A DNA stretch of 11,543 nt from a virus (lineage: Duplodnaviria > Heunggongvirae > Uroviricota > Caudoviricetes): IMG/VR virus record IMGVR_UViG_2698536484_000028; one strand, 5' to 3'. Position 1 is the first letter of the stretch. Each line of letters opens with the position of its first letter. The notes below the pieces were generated by a model. The model did no database searches. It was given only the letters and a program-made list of their open reading frames with translations, and was not told where the DNA came from. This document shows, piece after piece, positions 194-11,180 of the stretch. The translations under genes were made by a program, and so were the position numbers.

Positions 194-955
194 TTACGAG
201 GAAGCGTTAGCTATTTGAGCTTGTGTAAATTCGAAACCAGAATTTTGTAACCGTTGCACTAGACGAGGAACTGTTTCACGTACATGGTCGTTGAAATTCA
301 GATACAAAATCCCGTTAGCATCAGAAGGCTGTTCTAGGTGCTGTTTCTGAAGGATTGCTACATTGCTGCGCCCTAAGGACGAAAGAAGCATACCCATCTC
401 GAGTACAACGTTCTGTCTTGCGCGGGGTTGGATTTCTGCTTCACCGGCGCGCTTTGAGTATCCCATATCATCAGGTGTCAAAAGAACAATCCCGAAACGG
501 GTAGCAGTTTGTCCTTGCCCAATTTCACGTTCAAGCTCTTCAATAATGGTGAGTCCAGTCCCTCCCGTATTCTGCAAAATGAAATGGTCTGGTAATCCAA
601 GTTTATGAAGGATTAGCTCAAGTTGCTCCTTTGCAGTATGGTCATGGCCGTGAACAATGAATATCTTTTTGGGGAGCTCAGATGGCTGTTCTACGGCTAG
701 TGGTGTTGCCGTGGGCGGCGTTCCTAAATGGGTCATTATTGCAGTTTCAACATTGGGACGTTCTTGAGGGTTACCTTGAAACTGAATGGTCCGGGTGGTG
801 TAAAGGTTAACAATTACGCCATTCGTTAAACGATAGCAGTCACAAGTCTCACGCTGTTCGTGGGAAAAATTGGTGAACCCACACTCCCTCAAAAAGTCAG
901 GAAAAGTTTCTCTCGAGTATGGATAGGTGATCGGCATTTCAGTTAGTTCCTGCAT
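194..955 (-). CDS. TIR-like (COG4271 / Cap12-PycTIR-effector-like) nucleotide-binding domain protein with an unrecognised ~75-aa N-terminal domain
   Basis: 253-aa ORF with AAGGA about 9 nt upstream of the ATG. Residues ~97-230 carry KIFIVHGHD..AKEQLELILHKLGL..GLTIIEELERE..FGIVLLTPDDMGY..NVVLEMGMLL, which I recognise as the hallmark pattern of the predicted nucleotide-binding TIR-like family. A Pro/Thr-rich linker (GTPPTATPLAVEQPSELP) joins it to the N-terminal domain. Family assignment is from memory, not a search. Confidence 0.75.
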   Translation of the reverse strand: MQELTEMPITYPYSRETFPDFLRECGFTNFSHEQRETCDCYRLTNGVIVNLYTTRTIQFQGNPQERPNVETAIMTHLGTPPTATPLAVEQPSELPKKIFIVHGHDHTAKEQLELILHKLGLPDHFILQNTGGTGLTIIEELEREIGQGQTATRFGIVLLTPDDMGYSKRAGEAEIQPRARQNVVLEMGMLLSSLGRSNVAILQKQHLEQPSDANGILYLNFNDHVRETVPRLVQRLQNSGFEFTQAQIANASS

Positions 956-1019
956 AAGTATTGTTCCTTTAATTTACTCGAATTCAGCATGTCGCCATAG
1001 CTCGATAAGGTGAGTTATA

Positions 1020-3083
1020 TCAATCTTTTTTGTAGTGGTACGCCTCAAAACCGCCAGCGTTCAGTGGGATATCGGGCGCCCATTCGGGGTCAGTGGAGAG
1101 AAGCGCGGAAAGCGCTTTATCGTTGAAATCTTCTGTGTCAGGTGCTTCGGTGATCACCTCGTCGTGTACCGTCAGCACAATGCTGTAACCGGCATCTTCG
1201 ATAAGCGGCATGTTTCCGGCCAGAATGTCGCGGGCGGCCGCCTGGGTGATGTTCTCCACCAGCTTTCCGCCGTAGGTTTTGAGTCGTTGCCATTTACGCG
1301 AATAAGAGTTAACCCCCATGTAGGTGATATTCCCTTTTTCGATAACCGGAGACGGGTAGCATACAGCGCGTCCGGATGGTAGCTGTATGCGCAGCCACGC
1401 GCCATCGCGGCGGATTTTAAGATAACCGCAATACAATGTTTTTTGCGGTGTGGCGATTGCAGTGCGGACGGTGCGCTCCAGTTCGTACCAGAAATCACAG
1501 GTCGCGGGATGCGCCCGGCGCCAGAGACGTTTAAGTGAGTCGCAGGCGATAAATACCCGTTCAGAAAGCCCGTAGGTTGACTTGCGTTTAACCGATTCGT
1601 CGTACCAGCTTTTCGCCTCGCGGATAACATCGCGGGGAATGTTTGGTAGTGCGGCGTTCGCCAGCTCGTCGAGATCGAGACCGTAAACCAGTGCAAAAGT
1701 GATGAAGGCCGACACACCACCACCATAACCCAGACCGAGTTCCATGACTTTACCGATCTGACGCATGTGTTTATCAACATCATCTGGTGCAATATCGAAA
1801 GCTTTTGCATACGCCAGTTTATATAAGTCCGGACCCGTTCCGGCGTCGTACTCTCTGAATGCATTCAGTTTCCATTCTTCTCCCGCCAGCCATGCCAGCA
1901 TACGGCCTTCAATGTTCGACAAGTCACTTACCACCAGCTTTTTGCCTGTTGGCGCGATAATGCAGCCACGTAACGCTGAACTGGTTAGTTCCATGATATT
2001 GTCAAACAGCAGGTCTGCACATCCGGCTTTCAGTGCTTCGATGCCTTCGTCTATTTGTTCCTGTTTTAGTGAAGGGCGGGGAAGGTTCTGGGGCTGGAAT
2101 AGCCGTCCGGCCCAACGACCGGTACGTGACGCCCCGCAGAACTGTAGCGTACCGCGTAAGCGCCCGTCGTGGCTTACGCCTTTCATCAGTGCCTTGTATT
2201 TACTGGTGCTGGTAGTACTGGCCTGCAGGCGGATAGCCAGCAGTTCTTTCACGGCAGATGGTAAATCGGGGTCGGCAATACGACGTTCCAGAGTACTGCG
2301 TTGCATGTCTGGTAGCTCCACACCGTAGGATTCAACAATGTGCTTAATCAACGCGTCTCGTTGTGTGGCTGCCTGCACTTCGCCATCAGTCATTTCCTGT
2401 GTACGCTTTGCCAGGCGCTTTTGCTCCTGGTCTACCGCTTCGATCGCAGCGCGCGCGAGTTGAATGTCCATGCAGACGCCCCGGTCGTTGATCTGCTGAT
2501 CACGATGCCAGAGCGCCAGTTCTGTCCCCTGATAATTCCACTTCGGCAGACGTTTATAGACTTCGCGCATTGCCTCGATATCCAGTCCGGCGTAAGCAAC
2601 AAAGCGCCGCCATTCTTCCGGGTGGGTTTTACTGGTGGCCCGACGCAGTTTGCTGTTTTTCGGGCGTGGCTTACAGAACAGCTGGATCAGCGCTTTACCT
2701 TCTTTGTCCTTCGCTTTGTCTTGCGGGACGCCGAGTATTTCGCAGAGTTCCCCCAGAGACCCCGGGAGGCCGTGCGCCAGCGCCTGCACCATTGTGTCGC
2801 GCCAACGTTCGACTGGCGGTGCCAGGCGCGGCATTGCATAACGCAGAACGGTGCGGTCGAAGTGAGAGTTATGGAAATAAAGCAGGGTTTCAGGGTCTGC
2901 GATTGCTTCGTATAAGCCGTGTGGAATACCACCACCGGCAGTGATATCCCACACGTTTACTGGCCCGTCGTTGATAGCCCATGCGAAAAGCATCACTTCA
3001 ACGCCTTCGGCATACGCATGGGTACCGTTCGTAATAGGGATTTCGCAATAGGTTTCCAGGTCGCCCCATAGTATATTGGACAT
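1020..3083 (-). CDS. Family A (Pol I-like) DNA polymerase with N-terminal 3'-5' exonuclease domain, phage type
   Basis: 687-aa ORF with AAGG SD 7 nt upstream. Exo I-like motif WGDLETY near the N-terminus; motif A-like [15 protein letters not shown], motif B-like [16 protein letters not shown], motif C-like LTVHDEV. Confidence 0.9.
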
Positions 3084-3129
3084 GTGTTTACCTTGGTTTT
3101 TATTCTATTAACTGATTAAAAGATTAATT

Positions 3130-3759
3130 ATGCATATGATCCAATACTTGATTGACCATACAGAGCATCTGGAGAAAATAGCTGGATATATTTTTTCATG
3201 TTTGATTGTTATGGGAGTCTGGATAAGAAAGATTATTTTTAATTATAAGTATAAAGAGCCTAAATATGTTAAGAAGTTAATTTTATATTTAGTTAAGTAT
3301 GAACGTTATCTGGATGAGGAGGATAAGAGTGCCATAGAAAAAAGAATAAATGATAAAATTATTCGTGATGCGCTGAAATTGCAATCATCTTATAACCGAA
3401 GAGATGTTATTTACATTTGCAATAGATTAGAAAAAAGACAGTATATAAATCAGTTGATTAAGCTTCAGAATTATATAGAGAAAGATAACGGAGTGTTTTT
3501 TATTAATGTTGATTTTTCAGGTTTTTTATTTATTATTAGTCGTCTGTTTTCCTTTCTGTGTTTTGTGCTGTTTACCCTTTTTTCTATTATCTGCATTATT
3601 TCCATAGGGCAAAATGAAGGCCTTTTAAATTATCTTGTGTATATGGTTATGATAATAGTTTTAGAGACTGTTGGTTTTTGGATGTATGATACTTTCCCGT
3701 CTAAGAAAAAGATCTGTGAACTAAATAAAGAATTGAGAAAGATTAAGATTCCTGAGTGA
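3130..3759 (+). CDS. Hypothetical multi-pass membrane protein encoded by a strongly AT-rich, opposite-strand insert
   Basis: 209-aa ORF on the opposite strand to its neighbours. Sample 60-nt lines count about 17-33% GC, against roughly 50% in flanking genes. Hydrophobic segments at ~aa 16-32, ~121-160 and ~168-187; Lys/Glu-rich middle region. No clear SD, and the start could be a downstream Met. Confidence 0.6.
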   Translation: MHMIQYLIDHTEHLEKIAGYIFSCLIVMGVWIRKIIFNYKYKEPKYVKKLILYLVKYERYLDEEDKSAIEKRINDKIIRDALKLQSSYNRRDVIYICNRLEKRQYINQLIKLQNYIEKDNGVFFINVDFSGFLFIISRLFSFLCFVLFTLFSIICIISIGQNEGLLNYLVYMVMIIVLETVGFWMYDTFPSKKKICELNKELRKIKIPE

Positions 3760-3777
3760 TTATACGCCTAATCAGTA

Positions 3778-3796
3778 GCCCGGTGTTTAACCGGGC
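3778..3796. other. GC hairpin between convergent genes (GCCCGG-TGTTTAA-CCGGGC)
   Basis: Perfect 6-bp inverted repeat with a 7-nt loop between the stop of 3130..3759 (+) and the stop of 3812..4360 (-). No U-tract on either strand, so not a canonical intrinsic terminator. Confidence 0.3.
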
Positions 3797-3811
3797 GTCT
3801 ATGAAGTAGGG

Positions 3812-4360
3812 TTAAATTAGTGCTTCAGCATCAGCACCTTCGCTGATATCGTCGAAATCGTCAGCGCTTGCCACTCCGCCGCCAGCGAGTGCATCGCCGT
3901 CTCGCAGGAACTGGACTCCGCCGAGTGAGGCATTAATGCGTTTACCGAAATTATTGTCCTGTGCCCAGATATCGATAACGGCGTTTACATAGCACCCTGC
4001 ATAGGGACGTCCGTCAGCCTGAATAAGTGGCGAACGATCGCGATCAAGAACAGCTGGGCGCGCTTTGTTAGCAGCATTCAGGAAGAAATTACCGGGGAAG
4101 CCTTCATACTCTGCTTTTTCATCACCATCATGCAGGCACAGATTGAGTTTTTTCTCCAGCTGGTTATAAATGGGCTCCCACTTCTCTCCCCATTTTTCCT
4201 TCGCTACCTGCTTCATAGCTTTACGGATTTCTTCCAGTTGTGGGTGTTTGGGAGACATTAAAAATACTGCGGAGAAACGCGGATCGCCTTCGCCGTTTAC
4301 AGTTTTAGCTTCAAACAGAGACGGGAAGGCCAGACGAACATTGTTCAGCTTCAGTTTCAT
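3812..4360 (-). CDS. Phage SSB-like protein (DUF2815-type) with acidic C-terminal tail
   Basis: 182-aa ORF with AAGGA SD 8 nt upstream. N-terminus MKLKLNNVRLAFPSLFEAKT..PRFSAVFLMSPKHP matches my memory of the DUF2815 phage ssDNA-binding family (as in the Enc34-type replication module). C-terminal acidic tail DDFDDISEGADAEALI. Confidence 0.8.
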   Translation of the reverse strand: MKLKLNNVRLAFPSLFEAKTVNGEGDPRFSAVFLMSPKHPQLEEIRKAMKQVAKEKWGEKWEPIYNQLEKKLNLCLHDGDEKAEYEGFPGNFFLNAANKARPAVLDRDRSPLIQADGRPYAGCYVNAVIDIWAQDNNFGKRINASLGGVQFLRDGDALAGGGVASADDFDDISEGADAEALI

Positions 4361-4375
4361 GGGTATTTCCTTAAA

Positions 4376-5677
4376 TCAGATGAGGTCTGCGGTTAGCGTA
4401 TCGTCGGATACGTCGTCGAAATCATTTACAGGGTTGATATTGAGTGCGGGGCGTGGGTCTGACTCGGGAACGACGGTGGGTTTTCCATCAGCTCGTGTTA
4501 TCAGTGCCTCGACTTTTGACCAACGGCGCGGACTGGCCTTTTTGATAAGTTTTTCGGCTTTTGTGGGACTAATAAGTTTAAAGTCGAATACTTCTTCAGT
4601 TTTGTACCTGAACTGGTCCTTCAGAAGTGCGCGAGCTGCCTCTTCATCACTCCAGGCCCGGTTACCTTGTTTTCCTGTTACCAGTTTAAACCCCGGTACC
4701 GGATGTCCGGCATTGAGTTCATCGTGAACCCGGTCCCGTACTGCCTTTAGCCAGGATTCAATAAAGTCGGCCTGGCTATAGATCTCTGCAAGCTGCTCAA
4801 TGGTTAACAGAGGTACACGTGCGCTGGCATTGGTGATTATTTCGCTGACAGGCTTTGTCAGATCTTCAAAATCGCTGGCCGCTGTTTGTAAATGCTGCAT
4901 TTTCTGGGCAGTGCAAATAGCTTTTGCTTTACAGAAGCGGCACTGTTTTTCTCCAGGTATGAAGTTTTCCAGCGGTAGTGTCTCAATGCCTTCGCATTCA
5001 GCAATATTGAGAACAAGGATCGCACTGGTTGCGGCCTCCAGTGCCCGTTCACCGAAAGACTGAAGTTCCTGTACGGTTAACGACCATTCTGAAACGTGGT
5101 TGAGCCTTGGCTGGTGAATAAATAATCTTACAGTCTCAAAGTCATACAGCATGCTGAATTGTTCGAGAGCACCCAGAGCATACAGTTGTAGTTGCTCATT
5201 TTGTTCTGCATCAATGCGGACGCCTTTGCCATATTTCAGGTCGTGGATTTGTAATTCGTTACCAGCGATGATTATGCCGTCGGCAGTTCCGAAAGATTCT
5301 TCCACACCCGTTATATGTGAGAAATCAACACGTTGTTCAACCAATAGTTCATTATTCTGTGCAAGAGTCCAGACCGTATCAACATACCGGCCGACGGCTT
5401 CGACCATTTCATCATCCACCTGTGGGCCAGATGTATCATCAGGATTTTCGCGAAGGGGGTATGAGCCGAGAAACATAGAAACATTGCATCCGGCGTAGTG
5501 TTCCGGGTGGCTTTGCCTGTTTCGTAGAACTTTTTCAGCAAGCGCGTGCGCTGTAGTGCCCTCGATTGCAAAAGTTGTTTCTTTATCCGGTTGTGTGGCC
5601 TCCAGCGCCAGACTTCCTGGGCAGCGCATCCATCGATGCGCTGATGATGGAGAAAGTTGTGCGTGAACGTCTGGCAT
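4376..5677 (-). CDS. Cas4/RecB-like PD-(D/E)XK nuclease (DUF2800-type) with Cys cluster
   Basis: 433-aa ORF with GGAGGG SD 6 nt upstream. N-terminal [15 protein letters not shown]; GTADGIII and IHDLKYGKG nuclease-core-like motifs; QLQLYALGA (QxxxY); [10 protein letters not shown] plus the N-terminal Cys as a probable Fe-S/metal cluster. Acidic C-terminal tail [16 protein letters not shown]. Confidence 0.8.
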
Positions 5678-5679
5678 GA

Positions 5680-6582
5680 TTAACCCTCCAGTGCTTTTTC
5701 AGCCAGGGTGATTACTTCAGCGAGATTTTCATCCGTTACTTCACCAAGTTTCCTGGCTCCCTGTTTTTCCAGAATTGCAATAGCTTCTGCCCGGTAGCCC
5801 CCTTTTGCTAACTGGAGGATCAACCCTTCAGCTTGTTTGCGTAGTGCCGCGAAATCAATTGTATGGTCATCTTTGGCGTCATTATTCTGGCTGGAATTTG
5901 CTGCGTCTCTGCGTGCAAATTCTTCCTGCAGCTGAAGGTACTCAACACGGTTGATCTCGATATGGCCTTTTTTAAGCATCTCGTTCAACTTGCGTAAGGT
6001 GTGGAGTTCACTGGCTGCTGTGCCGGATACATTTTTGACGTAAAACGGCCCCGTGCGTTCTCCATCTTTGTTACTGGCCTTTTTCGGCTTAACTTCATCA
6101 CGCCCATCTGCAGGTGCATCAAGTAGCTGCTCGGCAAAAGCACGTCGCTCGCCGATGGTTGGCAGGTCGTCCCAGAACTTAAGGATGTTACGGGACAGGT
6201 CCAGGAGAGCAGGTTTAAGCAGCGCCCTGGCTCGTTTGACGCCCTGCAATGCGCTGTCGAGAGCATCAATCTGAACTACTCGTTTATCGCCTTCAGCATC
6301 ACGGTAGGCAACAGCACGTTGCAGCATATCTTCTGTGATAGGGGTGGCTACCGGGTAGAAACCAGCCAGTGCGATAACGTCGCTGAACTCCAGATCATCC
6401 AGTGTCATTGCCGCTGACATATTTTCAGTTTCAGTTGCTGTATCCCGACATTCCTGCACTCGTGAAATCGTGTCAGGATGCATAACAATACCTGATGCCA
6501 TTGTGCGGATAAGACGTTCAAGCAGCGCATTATGTTGTGCCAGAAGTTGATTATTAAGTTCTAGACTGGTTTCTAAACTCAT
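5680..6582 (-). CDS. Hypothetical protein, first large gene of the replication operon
   Basis: 300-aa ORF with GAGGA SD 7 nt upstream. Its start overlaps the upstream ORF stop (ATGA) and its stop is 2 nt from the nuclease start. No family recognised. Confidence 0.7.
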
Positions 6583-6728
6583 ACTGTGGTCCTCGCTACA
6601 AGGAGAATGAAAGTGATGATCAGACCGAGCGCAGTGGCAACGGCCAGACCGGTCATCAAATCGAAGTTTTTACGGCGATAACGGAGAACATCGCGCCCCG
6701 TCAGTCGATGGATGTGTTCAGGTTTCAT
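6579..6728 (-). CDS. Small single-pass membrane protein (about 49 aa from the preferred start)
   Basis: The ORF track gives 6579..6761, but the Met at 6728 has a good SD (AAGGA, 9-nt spacing) while 6761 has none. C-terminal hydrophobic helix LMTGLAVATALGLIITFILLVA. Translationally coupled (ATGA) to the next gene. Confidence 0.5.
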   Translation of the reverse strand: MKPEHIHRLTGRDVLRYRRKNFDLMTGLAVATALGLIITFILLVARTTV

Positions 6729-6785
6729 CGGTTGTATTCCTTTTTTCATATCGGGGAGCACGCTGTTGCGAGTGCGCTTTCAGAC

Positions 6786-6813
6786 ATAAAAAAGCCCGTC
6801 ACTTGCGGCGGGC
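6786..6813 (-). terminator. Intrinsic terminator-like hairpin on the minus strand, upstream of the replication operon
   Basis: Minus-strand RNA reads GCCCGCCGCAAGUGACGGGC (5-bp GC stem with additional inner pairs) followed by UUUUUUAU. It lies about 58 nt upstream of the 6728 start codon, on the same strand. Confidence 0.45.
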
Positions 6814-6891
6814 AAAGACTACACACAGCAATTACATGGATATCATCGAGTGCCTGCTTTTAACCACATCAGGCGAGGTGGTTCTCCTTGT

Positions 6892-6936
6892 ACCCCTACA
6901 GTGAGAAATCGTCTAATATCTCTTCACCCCTACAGT
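6892..6936 (+). repeat. Two direct copies of ACCCCTACAGT upstream of the 6953 gene
   Basis: The core CCCCTACAGT occurs at 6893-6902 and 6927-6936, 34 bp apart. The second copy sits inside an imperfect inverted repeat (TCTAATATCTCT .. GAGAGATTAGA). A TAATAT hexamer lies between them at 6914-6919. Confidence 0.35.
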
Positions 6937-6952: not shown

Positions 6953-7471
6953 ATGTCTGAAGAAAAAGGAATTCTTTCCCGGATAACTGAATCGTTATCC
7001 GGTGTGGGAGGAGCAATTAAAAGCGCGGTTGGAGCAGCAAGAGAGATTCAGAATCTGACTGTCGACTATGCAGTTAAAGAGAAGACGCACATCTTACTCG
7101 ATAAGCTAATGGATGTTCAGATGCAGCAAATGTCGCTTCAGGAGCTGCTGATTGCGGCTAAGGAGAAAATTGTTGAACTGGAAAATGAGAAAGTAAAGCA
7201 AGAGAACTGGGCCGCTGAAGCGGCGAGCTATGAACTTTACCAGCCTATGCGGGGTACTCTGGTCTATCGCAGCAAGCTTTCTGCAGATGCTGACCAATCT
7301 CCGGTTTATATTTGTCCCAATTGCTACGAGCAAAAGAGAAAATCTATATTGCAAGCGGAAGGTCTGGTTACTAAGCTAGGCCTTGGGCGAGTCGTTAATA
7401 TGGTTTGTTCGTACTGTAGGGCTTCCTATCTGTTCAACCCGAAATGCTTTAGAGGCCCGACTGCCTTCTGA
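6953..7471 (+). CDS. Hypothetical coiled-coil protein with C-terminal zinc-ribbon (CPNC..CSYC)
   Basis: 172-aa ORF with GAGAGA SD-like sequence upstream. Gly-rich N-terminal segment (SGVGGAIKSAVGAA), predicted coiled coil (LQELLIAAKEKIVELENEKVKQENW), then CxxC-25 residues-CxxC. Convergent with the cI-like gene. Confidence 0.7.
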   Translation: MSEEKGILSRITESLSGVGGAIKSAVGAAREIQNLTVDYAVKEKTHILLDKLMDVQMQQMSLQELLIAAKEKIVELENEKVKQENWAAEAASYELYQPMRGTLVYRSKLSADADQSPVYICPNCYEQKRKSILQAEGLVTKLGLGRVVNMVCSYCRASYLFNPKCFRGPTAF

Positions 7472-7574
7472 AGATGAAAATCCGGGGAAGGCAATCACGG
7501 ATTACGATCCTTACAACCAGTAATTTCTTTAAGCATGGGTACCCTTCCGGTCACCCAGAGTTAAAGGAACTAAG

Positions 7575-7601
7575 CGCCCCATCATCGGGGCGTTTCAACT
7601 T
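7575..7601 (+). terminator. Possible plus-strand terminator after the 6953..7471 gene
   Basis: CGCCCC-ATCATC-GGGGCG hairpin (7575-7592) followed by TTTCAACTT. The U-tract is weak. Confidence 0.3.
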
Positions 7602-7737
7602 GCGTGACTTATCAGTTCGTCGCGGTGTTGTCCTCTACGCTTACCGTACGCATACGGACTCGGCGCTTACCTCGATCCCATCGGGTGCTATTTCGTTTTG
7701 CCAGGAGCACTGCGGCTTACCTGTCACGCGGTTCTGT

Positions 7738-7749
7738 TTGTTAAAGAGC
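7738..7749 (-). promoter_or_regulatory. boxA element (exact GCUCUUUAACAA) in the leftward transcript
   Basis: The minus strand reads GCTCTTTAACAA, identical to the rrn boxA core 12-mer as I remember it (NusB/NusE binding site). It lies about 30 nt downstream of the predicted start of the leftward promoter. Confidence 0.45.
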
Positions 7750-7773
7750 TGGTATTAGAAAATGCATTAATTA

Positions 7774-7814
7774 TGCGGTATCGTATTTATATGCGTTATG
7801 GGATTTTGTGTCAA
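7774..7814 (-). promoter_or_regulatory. PL-like leftward sigma70 promoter overlapped by two operator-like repeats
   Basis: On the minus strand: -35 TTGACA (rc of 7809-7814), 17-bp spacer, -10 TATAAA (rc of 7786-7791). Operator-like motifs TGCGGTATCG (7774-7783) and TGCGTTATGG (7792-7801) flank the -10 hexamer. Confidence 0.55.
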
Positions 7815-7898: not shown

Positions 7899-8573
7899 TT
7901 AGTACATGCGTAGCGCGGATTTGGCGATCCCCGCCACGTAATGGATTTTTTCAATGTTTTCGCGTGGTACTCTGACTGGTGGATGATCTTCATTTACAGA
8001 CATTAGATGGAACAGGCCATCGCGTTCGAACAAGAAGGTTTTAACCATGACCTCACCGTCCCGGGTAACCACAAGTACTTCATCACCAGGAGTGTAGTCG
8101 TGGTTGGGTTCGACGATTACGAACTCACCCTCTTTGATTCTAGGCATCATTGAATCACCAACACATTTCAGGGCGTATGCATCTTCATCCTTTGTCGGCC
8201 AGTATATGAAACCATCACTGCTACCTACTGAATATTGGGTGTCGCTCCAAAGTCCTCCAACGCCTAGCTGAGTGTTTCCCAAAACAGGTACTTTATTAAA
8301 CCTAAGAGAAATATACGTTTTTATACCTGTCGCGTCCTCTTTCTCCATTTCTTGAAGGCTCCTTTCTGCCAGGTCTATTGGTGACACGTGGAAGTAGTCG
8401 GCGATCTGCTTTAACGTTGCGTATTTCGGATCTTTCACCTCTCCTGATACCAGCCTGTGTAGCGTTGGTTGGTTCAGCTGTAACCGACGTGCCAGCTCAG
8501 TTATCGAGCTTATCTTGGTTTTGTCCATCAGGTACTTGATGTTTTGAGAAAGGATATCGGTAGTATCAATCAT
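7899..8573 (-). CDS. cI/LexA-like phage repressor (N-terminal HTH, C-terminal S24 peptidase domain)
   Basis: 224-aa ORF. N-terminal HTH region (ITELARRLQLNQPTLHRLVSG); C-terminal S24 signature with Ser in CVGDSMMP and Lys in EVMVKTF. No canonical Ala-Gly cleavage site in the linker; candidates are L-G or V-G-G in VPVLGNTQLGVGG. Confidence 0.85.
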   Translation of the reverse strand: MIDTTDILSQNIKYLMDKTKISSITELARRLQLNQPTLHRLVSGEVKDPKYATLKQIADYFHVSPIDLAERSLQEMEKEDATGIKTYISLRFNKVPVLGNTQLGVGGLWSDTQYSVGSSDGFIYWPTKDEDAYALKCVGDSMMPRIKEGEFVIVEPNHDYTPGDEVLVVTRDGEVMVKTFLFERDGLFHLMSVNEDHPPVRVPRENIEKIHYVAGIAKSALRMY

Positions 8574-8714
8574 TTGGATTCATCCATGTTGTATACAGGG
8601 ACGGTGATTATGCGTTATCGGATATTTTAATACAGGATGATATAGAATTGCCGTATTGCTGAATAATCCGTTTTCGTATAAATTTGCGCTATAGACGAAA
8701 GTGGAGACTTAAAT
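8574..8714. promoter_or_regulatory. Divergent cI/cro-type immunity control region
   Basis: Operator-like motifs TGCGTTATCG (8611-8620) and TGCGCTATAG (8685-8694). Candidate rightward promoter -35 TTGCTG (8656-8661) / -10 TAAATT (8679-8684), with cro SD GGAG at 8703-8706. Candidate leftward -10 CATAAT (rc of 8607-8612). Palindrome TGTATACA at 8590-8597. Confidence 0.5.
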
Positions 8715-8915
8715 ATGTCCGGACTAACACCACAAGAGATGGTCAAAAGCTTGATTGATTCAGGGTATACCCAAAACCAAATTGCCGAAATTGCAGGCGT
8801 GAAGCAGTCTTCTATTAGTCGGCTTCTCACCGGGGTTCATTCTGACCCTCGCTTTTCTACAGTACGTGCGATAGAAAAGCTTTTTCAGGAAGTGACAGCT
8901 AGACAAAAGGCGTAA
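8715..8915 (+). CDS. Cro-like small HTH (XRE-type) regulator
   Basis: 66-aa ORF divergent from the repressor, with GGAG SD 8 nt upstream. HTH region QNQIAEIAGVKQSSISRLLTG. Stop is 3 nt before the primase start. Confidence 0.8.
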   Translation: MSGLTPQEMVKSLIDSGYTQNQIAEIAGVKQSSISRLLTGVHSDPRFSTVRAIEKLFQEVTARQKA

Positions 8916-8918
8916 CCC

Positions 8919-11180
8919 ATGTCTGATAACAAACCATGGGGAGCTACGCCCGATGAGTGGTTCCACTTCGATCTGGTGTTGGGGATGACAGACAGGCTTT
9001 TACCTGTGGTGTCCAATCCCTGTGCAGAACTGTCGCCTAATAGCAAGCTGTCTCATAATTTCGGCAAAACCCCCAGTCGCTACAATGGCCAACGTAAGGT
9101 TGTTGGTATCCCCGACTGGGCTAACTATGTTGTTACGGAAAACGATTTTGCCCGGTGGTCGAACGAACCCGATTACGGTATTTGCGTTCGTACTGGCGAC
9201 GGGGTGGTGGCTCTGGACTGCGATATCAATGACGCCGGGATGCAGGAGATCGTACGCAATATTATCCTATCATGCCTGGGGGAACTTCCGCCACGTCGCT
9301 GGCGGGCTGACAGTCATAAATGCCTGTACCTGATTGCTGTTGATGGCGACTACCGTAAACGTGGTCACCGCCTGGAAGGCGAAAACAAACAAATAGAGCT
9401 GCTCGCTAAGGGCCAGCAGTTTGTGGCTTGTGGTACCCATCCGGCAGGCGAACGTATTCAGTGGGACAGCGGTTTGCCCGGCGAACCTCTGAAAATTACA
9501 TCTGAACAGCTCGAAAGCCTGTGGCAGCGTCTGGCGGATAACTTACCCGTGAAAGACAGCTATACCGCAGGTGCAGGACGTCAGCGTGACCTTTCCTGTG
9601 TTGATCCTTCCGCGACAGATGATGTCGCCGACTGGCTTGACGCGAACGGGTGGACTCTGTCAGTCAGCTCTGATGGTTCCCGCAATCTGAAACCGTTTCG
9701 GGATGAGTCAGAATACAGCAACGGTTGCAGCGAAACATCCATTAAGTATTTTCCAAAAGGGACGGGGGGATTTGAACAGGGACATTTTAAAAGCATGCAC
9801 AACACCGATGCGGGGCTTACTGATGCCGACTGGCTGGAAGGCTACGGCTATACGCAATCCCTGTTCGAAGATCTCACGGTGGCTGAAGATGGCGATAAGC
9901 CTGAATTTACCGATATTAATACAGATATGACAGCTCATTTTCTGGAACGCTTTATCTACGTCATCGAGGGTGACCAGGTATGTGATCTTAGCCGACCGCC
10001 ATATCAGTGCATGATGGATATGAAGTCGTTCAAAAACCTGATGGCGCCTTACCAGTTCCCGCCAGAAGGGAAAGGACAACCAACTCCCGCAACCAAACGG
10101 TGGATAGAGCATCGGCATAAGAAGATTGCTGAGACGACAGGCTATAAGCCCGGTGCGGGACGTATTATCGAGCGTTTCGACGGGCGGTTTGAGATAAACG
10201 AATTTTATATGCCTGAGCATCCACGTACAGCGGATACAAGTAAGGTGTCCACGTTCCTTAATCATATGGCGTATCTGGTACCTGATGCCTGGCAGCGCGA
10301 GTTTTTCATCGCCCGTCTGGGGTGGATGGTTCAGCGTCCGGAGCGTCGATGCCCGATTTCTATTCTGCATGTGGCTACCGCACATGGTACGGGCAGAGGA
10401 TGGGTCAGTCAGTTAATGGAGCGCGTGCTTGGCCCGTGGAACTGTGCTCGTACTCGCATGAAGATCCTGTGCGATAACCAGTTCCATGACTATCTGTACA
10501 ATACACTTCTATGCACCATTGACGAGGTGCGCGAAAACGATAAGCGGTATGAGGTGAACGATAAGATCCGTGACGTGCTGACAGAACCACGGTTTGAAGT
10601 GAACCGCAAATATGGCAGCAAAAAAACGATGGATATATACACCGGCTTTCTGTTCTACACCAACCACTTTGATGCGCTGGCGCTGCCAGAGGAAGACCGA
10701 CGTATAGCTGTGCTGGGGGGCCCTGACTTCGCCGCAACTGAAGAGCATTACGCCAGCCTGTACGGTGCGCTAAGCGACAGCGACTTTATCGCCCAGGTGT
10801 ACTGGTATCTAATGGGCGTTGACCTGTCTCGCTTTAACTGGCAGCGCGCCCCCGAGACGAAAGAACGCCTTCTGATGATTGAAAGCAATAAGAGCGATGT
10901 GGAGGCTGCTCTTATTGAAATCCTGGATAATCCGCCTGTGCCAGCAATGACTTATCAACAAATTGTTAACGCAATACTGGCAGAAGCAGGAATGGATGTA
11001 GAAATTAACCAGAAGCATATTACTCGCATTTTGAAAGAAAGAACAAAGCGGGAACCCGTACGCGTAAAAATTGACGGGTTTGTATATAGGATTTGGATTC
11101 TTGTAAAAAATAACGATTTCAGCAACGAAGAATTGCGCGAAATATATAAATCTTGCGAAATTTTGCAATCTGGATTGTAA
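8919..11180 (+). CDS. Replication initiator: AEP-type primase-polymerase N-terminal domain fused to an SF3-helicase-like NTPase domain
   Basis: 753-aa ORF. N-terminal GICVRTGDGVVALDCD (hhhDhD-type AEP motif). C-terminal region has P-loop-like ILHVATAHGTGRGW, Walker B-like LLCTIDEV and motif C-like FYTNHF. An iteron origin lies immediately downstream. Confidence 0.8.
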   Translation: MSDNKPWGATPDEWFHFDLVLGMTDRLLPVVSNPCAELSPNSKLSHNFGKTPSRYNGQRKVVGIPDWANYVVTENDFARWSNEPDYGICVRTGDGVVALDCDINDAGMQEIVRNIILSCLGELPPRRWRADSHKCLYLIAVDGDYRKRGHRLEGENKQIELLAKGQQFVACGTHPAGERIQWDSGLPGEPLKITSEQLESLWQRLADNLPVKDSYTAGAGRQRDLSCVDPSATDDVADWLDANGWTLSVSSDGSRNLKPFRDESEYSNGCSETSIKYFPKGTGGFEQGHFKSMHNTDAGLTDADWLEGYGYTQSLFEDLTVAEDGDKPEFTDINTDMTAHFLERFIYVIEGDQVCDLSRPPYQCMMDMKSFKNLMAPYQFPPEGKGQPTPATKRWIEHRHKKIAETTGYKPGAGRIIERFDGRFEINEFYMPEHPRTADTSKVSTFLNHMAYLVPDAWQREFFIARLGWMVQRPERRCPISILHVATAHGTGRGWVSQLMERVLGPWNCARTRMKILCDNQFHDYLYNTLLCTIDEVRENDKRYEVNDKIRDVLTEPRFEVNRKYGSKKTMDIYTGFLFYTNHFDALALPEEDRRIAVLGGPDFAATEEHYASLYGALSDSDFIAQVYWYLMGVDLSRFNWQRAPETKERLLMIESNKSDVEAALIEILDNPPVPAMTYQQIVNAILAEAGMDVEINQKHITRILKERTKREPVRVKIDGFVYRIWILVKNNDFSNEELREIYKSCEILQSGL

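Follow-up and report, generated by a model that had tools for sequence, protein, structure and literature searches.

Among the closest described systems is the leftward early region of phage lambda (PL-nutL-N-tL1), in which tL1 acts as a checkpoint; "tL1-like" refers here to this logic and not to homology. The put RNAs of phage HK022 make RNA polymerase resistant to terminators without protein factors (PMC9378689). In the Escherichia coli rrn leader, boxA and the first spacer bases form the NusB/NusE site (PMC2724277). Complexes of the rrn type are known mainly to suppress Rho-dependent and not intrinsic termination, and are not known to overcome efficiently an intrinsic terminator, the obstacle at the locus described here. 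The host sRNA RprA controls RpoS, curli and biofilm formation (csgD), and other targets. Its last 47 nt, RprAproc, coexist with the full-length RNA and are active by themselves (PMC9262595). StxS, released by RNase E from the terminated PR'-tR' transcript of Stx phages, binds Hfq and mimics core sRNAs including RprA (PMC7547250), and is so far the only known case of a phage coupling the control of its own transcription to a mimic of a host sRNA.

The whole stretch of DNA analysed here (the window, 11,543 nt) shows 98% identity to temperate Escherichia phages of the vB_EcoM-606R2/611R5 group. Its early-left region resembles that of lambda in having a repressor-controlled leftward promoter beside a cI-like gene, an RNA site with boxA early in the transcript, an accessory gene on the opposite strand inside the leader (in lambda sieB, through which PL transcription runs antisense), and a terminator ahead of the delayed-early genes. 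It differs from lambda in that neither an N gene nor a boxB-like hairpin was recognised, in an analysis not aimed at boxB or at arginine-rich-motif proteins, in its boxA, which has the rrn consensus (lambda boxA being CGCUCUUA) and precedes some 160 nt of structured RNA, and in the RprA-derived nature of its terminator. Where lambda tL1 lies with respect to sieB was not found in the literature searched.

The comparison with HK022 is through sister phages, which have the same operon and terminator and carry putL directly after PL; in both systems an intrinsic terminator has to be read through, and the leader RNA after PL would, by inference, act without a dedicated phage protein. The window itself, however, has no put but a 175-nt leader RNA containing boxA and without sequence similarity to put, and HK022 has no RprA-like block. 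With the rrn leader (boxA/NusB-NusE, rrnTAC) the window shares an exact 12-nt match spanning boxA and the first spacer bases, as well as a long untranslated transcript in need of protection from Rho, whereas the context is a phage leader and the structure downstream of boxA is unrelated. A tL1-like gate is in itself ordinary, textbook lambda logic; the RprA copy and the boxA leader RNA are apparently undescribed.

Gene layout and the early-left promoter

The features of the window are listed in Table 1. In a sister phage, further leftward genes (nuclease, helicase) lie beyond the site equivalent to the second terminator-like site that follows the TIR gene. A 209-aa gene of unknown function (phrog_10579; 3130-3759, plus strand) lies opposite the middle of the replication operon, with several promoter-like sites at 3077-3179 on its own strand, and resembles what may be an inserted accessory gene.

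Table 1. Coordinates of the features of the early-left region and its surroundings in the window
Feature	Position	Strand	Remarks
Second intrinsic-terminator-like site	172-154	minus	After the TIR gene, same replication operon
Early-left (replication) operon, whole	194-6728	minus	Six genes named, from the 49-aa protein to the TIR-domain protein
TIR-domain protein	194-955	minus	CAP12/Pycsar effector TIR, E 3e-31; lies within the replication operon
Family A DNA polymerase	1020-3083	minus	Replication operon
Enc34-type SSB	3812-4360	minus	Replication operon
DUF2800/PD-(D/E)XK nuclease	4376-5677	minus	Replication operon
300-aa protein	5680-6582	minus	Second gene of the replication operon
49-aa protein	6579-6728	minus	First gene of the replication operon; phrog_11981
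Leader from terminator to first gene, 59 nt	6729-6787	minus	Second hairpin and Shine-Dalgarno, no promoter-like site
Shine-Dalgarno AAGGAA	6742-6737	minus	Within the 59-nt leader
Second conserved hairpin, GCGCAC...GUGCUC	~6777-6756	minus	Covaries among relatives
Intrinsic terminator (termination inferred)	6788-6813	minus	Stem GCCCG(C)C / G(A)CGGGC at 6813-6794, U6 at 6793-6788
RprA-3'-like module, 46 nt	6788-6833	minus	Block plus terminator; homologue of RprAproc, the final ~47 nt of RprA
Invariant single-stranded block UUGCUGUGUGUAGUCUUUGCCC, 22 nt	6831-6810	minus	Identical to the RprA core
172-aa gene, unknown function	6953-7471	plus	phrog_1244; between PL and the terminator
Module X, 175-nt structured leader RNA	7749-7575	minus	~+31 of the PL transcript
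Exact rrn-type boxA GCUCUUUAACAA	7749-7738	minus	First 12 nt of module X
PL-like early-left promoter	7772-7814	minus	-35 TTGACA 7814-7809, 17-nt spacer, -10 TATAAA 7791-7786
Operator-like ATAMCGCATA sites at PL	7799-7790 and 7781-7772	minus	Exact matches, overlapping the promoter
Terminator after the repressor gene	7868-7844	minus	10-bp stem, -12.8 kcal/mol; upstream of PL
CI-like repressor	7899-8573	minus	HTH and Peptidase_S24 domains (Pfam); "repressor protein" in ON470588
Cro-like gene	8715-8915		Right of the repressor
Primase-like gene	8919-11180		Right of the Cro-like gene

The motif ATAMCGCATA has three exact matches in the window, two at PL and one on the PR side, in the intergenic region between the repressor and cro (8609-8618). 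This shared presence at PL and in the repressor/cro region identifies the PL-like site as a repressor-controlled PL, with an inferred start site at about 7780. A transcript running from there to 6788 would measure about 990 nt, would not be translated and would be antisense to the 172-aa gene.

The initial annotation, which was made without database searches, had placed a PL-like promoter about 1 kb upstream of the hairpin, and this held (TTGACA, 17 nt, TATAAA, with operator-like sites). Its main reading, that the replication operon depends on read-through from PL past a tL1-like checkpoint, is supported by the comparative evidence presented below: the terminator lies downstream of a repressor-controlled early promoter and on the same strand, and a boxA RNA, whose anti-termination activity is inferred, lies between the two. 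Its alternative, that the hairpin ends a long antisense RNA covering 6953-7471, describes the same PL transcript and is no rival.

An ORF of 94 aa at 7474-7758 on the plus strand is probably not a gene and was rejected as one, having no Pfam or PHROG match and being cut through by the boundary of a conserved RNA module; a sister phage has a different small ORF annotated at this position. The 172-aa gene occupies the position of lambda sieB, and its product was considered as a SieB homologue and rejected, since it is not homologous to lambda SieB. Upstream of this gene, the segment at about 6850-6940 matches the spacer between lambda ral and sieB at 81-87% identity, DNA of a kind present in about 1000 E. 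coli genomes; it contains two direct repeats (ACTGTAGGGGT) and a hairpin (AACCACC...GTGGTT), and resembles what could be a portable control region for accessory genes at that position. At the place where the window has the antisense 172-aa gene, the sister prophages L003 (3290-3490, minus strand) and L004 (3300-3490, minus strand) have instead, between put and the terminator, differing small unannotated ORFs of about 60 aa, one of which contains CxxC...CxxC motifs.

The hairpin ahead of the replication operon

The minus strand from 6813 to 6786 reads GCCCGCCGCAAGTGACGGGCTTTTTTAT, giving at 6813-6788 a hairpin and U-run (GCCCGCCGCAAGTGACGGGC-TTTTTT) that has the make-up of an intrinsic terminator, i.e., a G+C-rich hairpin with a U-run of at least 5-6 right behind it, at a modest folding energy. 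The stem consists of five pairs, all G:C, then a C.A mismatch and one further pair, and encloses a loop of 6-10 nt; its fold energy is -9.4 kcal/mol (z = -1.6, with 14 of 200 shuffles equally stable), and terminator-like patterns across the window are at chance level (13 seen against 11.6 expected). The consensus terminator scan missed the hairpin, solely because of its loop limit of 8 nt. Compared with the terminator of E. coli rprA (-12.8 kcal/mol, U8), that of the window (U6) is less stable, and given its weak stem it may be leaky even without anti-termination. Judged alone, the window hairpin is unremarkable and weak evidence, and its reality rests on the comparison with relatives.

Relatives were collected as 54 viral loci via the neighbouring 300-aa protein, 51 of them with enough upstream DNA to be informative, and the same element was found in the same place upstream of the replication operon in 49 of these 51. 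Among 33 distinct phage hairpins, stem positions 1-4 are paired in every case, and position 5 is G-C in 16, C-G in 4 and A-U in 12; this compensatory change shows that the terminator hairpin is kept by selection on RNA structure. In place of the RprA-like element, L055 has an unrelated hairpin and U-run terminator (AAAAGGCTTCGGCCTTTT, with a UUCG loop) 27 nt before the ATG; here the terminator was kept and the RprA block dropped, which argues that the stop signal itself is selected at that position. In L050 a deletion took the block and the 5' stem arm, and the element is therefore dispensable in at least one prophage. Both natural variants (L050 2760-2800, L055 2797-2856) may serve as ready-made controls.

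With regard to the claims of the initial annotation on this site, the GC hairpin and U6 on the minus strand were confirmed, and its distance of 58 nt to the first gene was corrected to 59 nt, the ATG being at 6728 and not at 6729. The absence of a convincing promoter between hairpin and gene also held, in that a consensus scan restricted to sigma-70-type hexamers found no such promoter on the minus strand at 6729-6813, and with the reservation that a non-consensus promoter cannot be excluded by sequence. An unrecognised promoter, activator-dependent or non-consensus, in or near 6729-6787 would turn the hairpin into an insulator against read-through from PL or the repressor gene. In favour of this rival are the limited scope of the scan and the second hairpin of the 59-nt leader, which is conserved with compensatory changes among relatives (GCGCA/UGCGC, ACGCA/UGCGU, GUGCA/UGCAC) and could be a protein-binding site. 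Against it, the whole 59-nt leader is missing from loci of the L051/L072 type: in L051, L072, L128, L153 and others GGAGCACCACCGATG follows directly on the U-run, which in the first three abuts the ribosome-binding site and ATG, and only about 15 nt separate U-run and ATG in the L051/L072/L128 type. This sub-group has no room for a promoter, and its operon must therefore be transcribed only through the terminator; the 27 nt available in L055 likewise speak against the rival. Moreover, an RNA to which anti-termination is ascribed always lies upstream of the terminator, and would be pointless were the terminator a full stop. A promoter of the operon's own is thus regarded as unlikely.

On balance, the evidence favours the reading that this hairpin is a working intrinsic terminator by which a temperate E. 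coli phage gates its replication operon, although termination and read-through are both inferred, in the absence of transcript data. As for the leader that follows, the U-run of the terminator is predicted to pair, in the read-through RNA, with an A-run just before the Shine-Dalgarno, and the leader element at 6729-6787 might have a role in translation or stability.

The RprA-like module

At gathering thresholds, Rfam reports nothing in the window. A permissive Rfam scan places RprA (RF00034) over 6784-6897 with 47.5 bits (E 2.8e-4). The gathering score for this family is 70, so that the element does not qualify as a full-length RprA; the alignment is confident only over model positions ~60-108, i.e., the 3' half. 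The part corresponding to RprAproc is present, as an identical 22-nt core plus terminator. In 5424 of 5426 complete E. coli genomes, BLAST with 6836-6786 aligns 46 nt with the annotated rprA gene at 82.6% identity, and about 167 records also contain a phage-type copy at 90% identity or more; E. coli FDAARGOS_144 and CAU16175 have copies identical to that of the window. At least 120 species across Enterobacterales have the block, as DNA TTGCTGTGTGTAGTCTTTGCCC, as an exact match in their chromosomal rprA.

Like RprA, the element thus combines a single-stranded block with a hairpin that begins with GCCC and a U-tail. It differs from RprA in lacking the 5' half and the Rcs-dependent promoter, in that the rpoS-pairing AACGAAUU is AUGUAAUU in the window, and in being embedded in the leader of a phage operon. 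The prerequisites of an sRNA that can be seen in the sequence are the conserved single-stranded block, a U-rich stretch before the hairpin, and the U-tail. No site complementary to the block was found in the window other than the block's own opposite strand. A precedent for such an arrangement is StxS, where the terminator on which anti-termination acts also forms the 3' end of an sRNA that binds Hfq, a double role that is ascribed to the window by analogy only. Unlike StxS, whose promoter is late and Q-controlled and which is produced in lysogens, the element of the window would be served by the early-left promoter under RNA-based control, and its expression and activity as an sRNA are unproven.

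Identities between the window and distant relatives were calculated on the protein-retrieved set, which is free of pattern-search bias. The 22-nt block is 100% identical (95% in one locus), compared with 52-65% for the 40 nt upstream of it, 57-88% for the hairpin, 20-76% for the leader, 72-91% for the 49-aa gene and 62-76% for the next 600 nt. The block is therefore more constrained than the neighbouring coding DNA.

Such constraint bears on the possibility that the element is a neutral or recombination-promoting boundary sequence, or a recent capture of rprA that merely supplied a hairpin. A mosaic junction does lie just upstream of the module (~6841-6850), at the 5' edge of the block: the segment 6560-6841 is shared among relatives, the modules upstream of 6841/6842 vary, and the lambda-like segment ends at about 6850. 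However, drift would erode the block, which is kept at 100% where adjacent coding DNA is at 62-91%; the compensatory changes in the hairpin arms indicate selection on RNA structure; and the phage copies are consistently unlike host rprA in stem and flank, and hence are not repeated fresh captures. This explanation is considered very unlikely.

The block with a covarying terminator is present in other contexts in at least 120 viral contigs, including positions after STnc100-like RNAs and positions downstream of CI-like repressors in other lambdoid lineages, there at the ends of long non-coding leaders; in one STnc100-like RNA (L113) it forms the terminator. Copies at leader ends in other lineages include L064 5878-6842, L113 8201-8401 and L094 966-1215, and the hairpin that precedes the block in other lineages covaries (GGUGG-AGGCA-CCACC or CCGGG-AGGCA-CCCGG). 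The RprA core block was also seen in virulent N4-like and jumbo Erwinia phages (KF806588, Ea9-2; NC_031062, Frozen; MZ443776, pEa_SNUABM_1), in the N4-like ones together with the hairpin.

No description of a phage RprA-like element was found in the literature searched. Three candidate identities were rejected. Of the published prophage Pas sRNAs and STnc100 (10.64898/2026.05.13.724894, PMC8550237), the former have other sequences, the PasB probe sequence being unrelated, and the consensus of the latter lacks the block; an attP remnant of integration into rprA was rejected as the element lies in mid-operon and far from the prophage ends in a sister phage.

An alternative regarded as unlikely is that the element is primarily an sRNA gene, i.e., a phage mimic of RprA, of which termination is simply the 3' end, with gating being incidental or the operon fed by leaky read-through. 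In support of this rival, the block is invariant while hairpin, leader and neighbouring genes diverge, it is the most conserved part of RprA across Enterobacterales, and together with the terminator it ends unrelated non-coding leaders elsewhere and occurs in the virulent Erwinia phages as well. Against it, the window has no promoter-like site just upstream, neither the 5' half of RprA nor its promoter is present, and L055 has a terminator without the RprA block; the sRNA reading is in any case compatible with a checkpoint role and does not exclude it.

The boxA leader RNA and the proposed gate

Module X begins with the exact boxA, which occurs in the window only there and, with the bases that follow it, is identical to the E. 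coli NusB/NusE site described above. Its proposed structure, with a long-range closing helix, is supported by covariation: for its 37 pairs, the share of paired cells is 89%, as opposed to 26-39% in controls with the partners slid; both sides have changed in 8 pairs, where shuffles give 3.4+/-1.3 and none of 500 reaches as high. Module X has no match in Rfam and no ORF on its transcribed strand, and no published description of it was found in the literature searched. In the phage record collection it was present in four sister phages only.

Relatives such as L003, L004 and L044 carry directly after PL a homologue of HK022 putL (E ~1e-26); put is an RNA of about 70 nt with two stems and a conserved sequence and structure. 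Across 66 loci, counted without redundancy and each having 1200 nt or more of upstream sequence, the leader RNA is module X in 42 and put in 24, and no locus has both or neither. A put-like RNA in the window itself was rejected, since nhmmer found none and the best hit of a covariance model of 15 put sequences, searched without filters, reached only 7.1 bits (E 0.3) at an unrelated place. No N-like protein is annotated in a sister phage genome, and none is evident after module X, in a search that was not exhaustive. Other phage groups with the RprA-like terminator lack boxA, and nothing on other classes of anti-terminator RNA was found in the literature searched.

These data make module X a candidate for a processive anti-termination element of the nut/put kind, in which read-through and the use of Nus factors are inferred. 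Because rrn-type boxA complexes are known mainly to counter Rho-dependent termination, the notion that module X overcomes the hairpin terminator is a conjecture.

In the gate proposed here, loss of the CI-like repressor would allow PL to fire from about 7780, producing a transcript that opens with the 175-nt boxA RNA (7749-7575) and then runs untranslated for about 750 nt, antisense to the 172-aa gene, up to the terminator 59 nt before a first replication gene that would lack its own promoter. Modification at the boxA RNA, in which host Nus factors probably take part, would let polymerases pass the hairpin and later terminators and would shield them from Rho on the untranslated stretch, a task that in sister phages would fall to the HK022-type putL RNA. 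Unmodified polymerases, including those leaking from the repressor transcript, would halt at the hairpin. With lower confidence, the halted transcripts would end in the RprA-like, Hfq-binding module and may be trimmed to an sRNA that mimics RprA; as PL is repressed in lysogens, any such mimic would appear only upon induction or infection.

What has been shown are the sequence, its homology and conservation, the covariation, the gene order and the mutual exclusivity of the leader RNAs. The gate reading, with the logic of lambda N/nut-tL1 and HK022 put, goes beyond these and appears the more probable interpretation by a modest margin, as termination, read-through, Nus-factor use and activity of an sRNA in trans are all inferred.

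A bolder reading joins two proposals, that phages carry a portable "RprA tail" releasing mimics of RprAproc, and that module X is an N-independent, Nus-recruiting anti-terminator that replaces put; taken jointly, they are considered less likely than not. The first half would see the RprA core plus terminator, in several enterobacterial phage lineages, gating or ending early or immunity leaders and, if true, each regulatory termination event would release a mimic acting on the Hfq network of the host. The second half, if true, would make module X a new class of cis-acting processive anti-terminator able to pass an intrinsic terminator. The recurrence of the RprA copy in many unrelated phage leaders suggests that the control of phage transcription may be routinely coupled to a mimic of a host sRNA, and the 42/24/0/0 split between module X and put represents a natural experiment that points to a second, undescribed RNA route to processive anti-termination.
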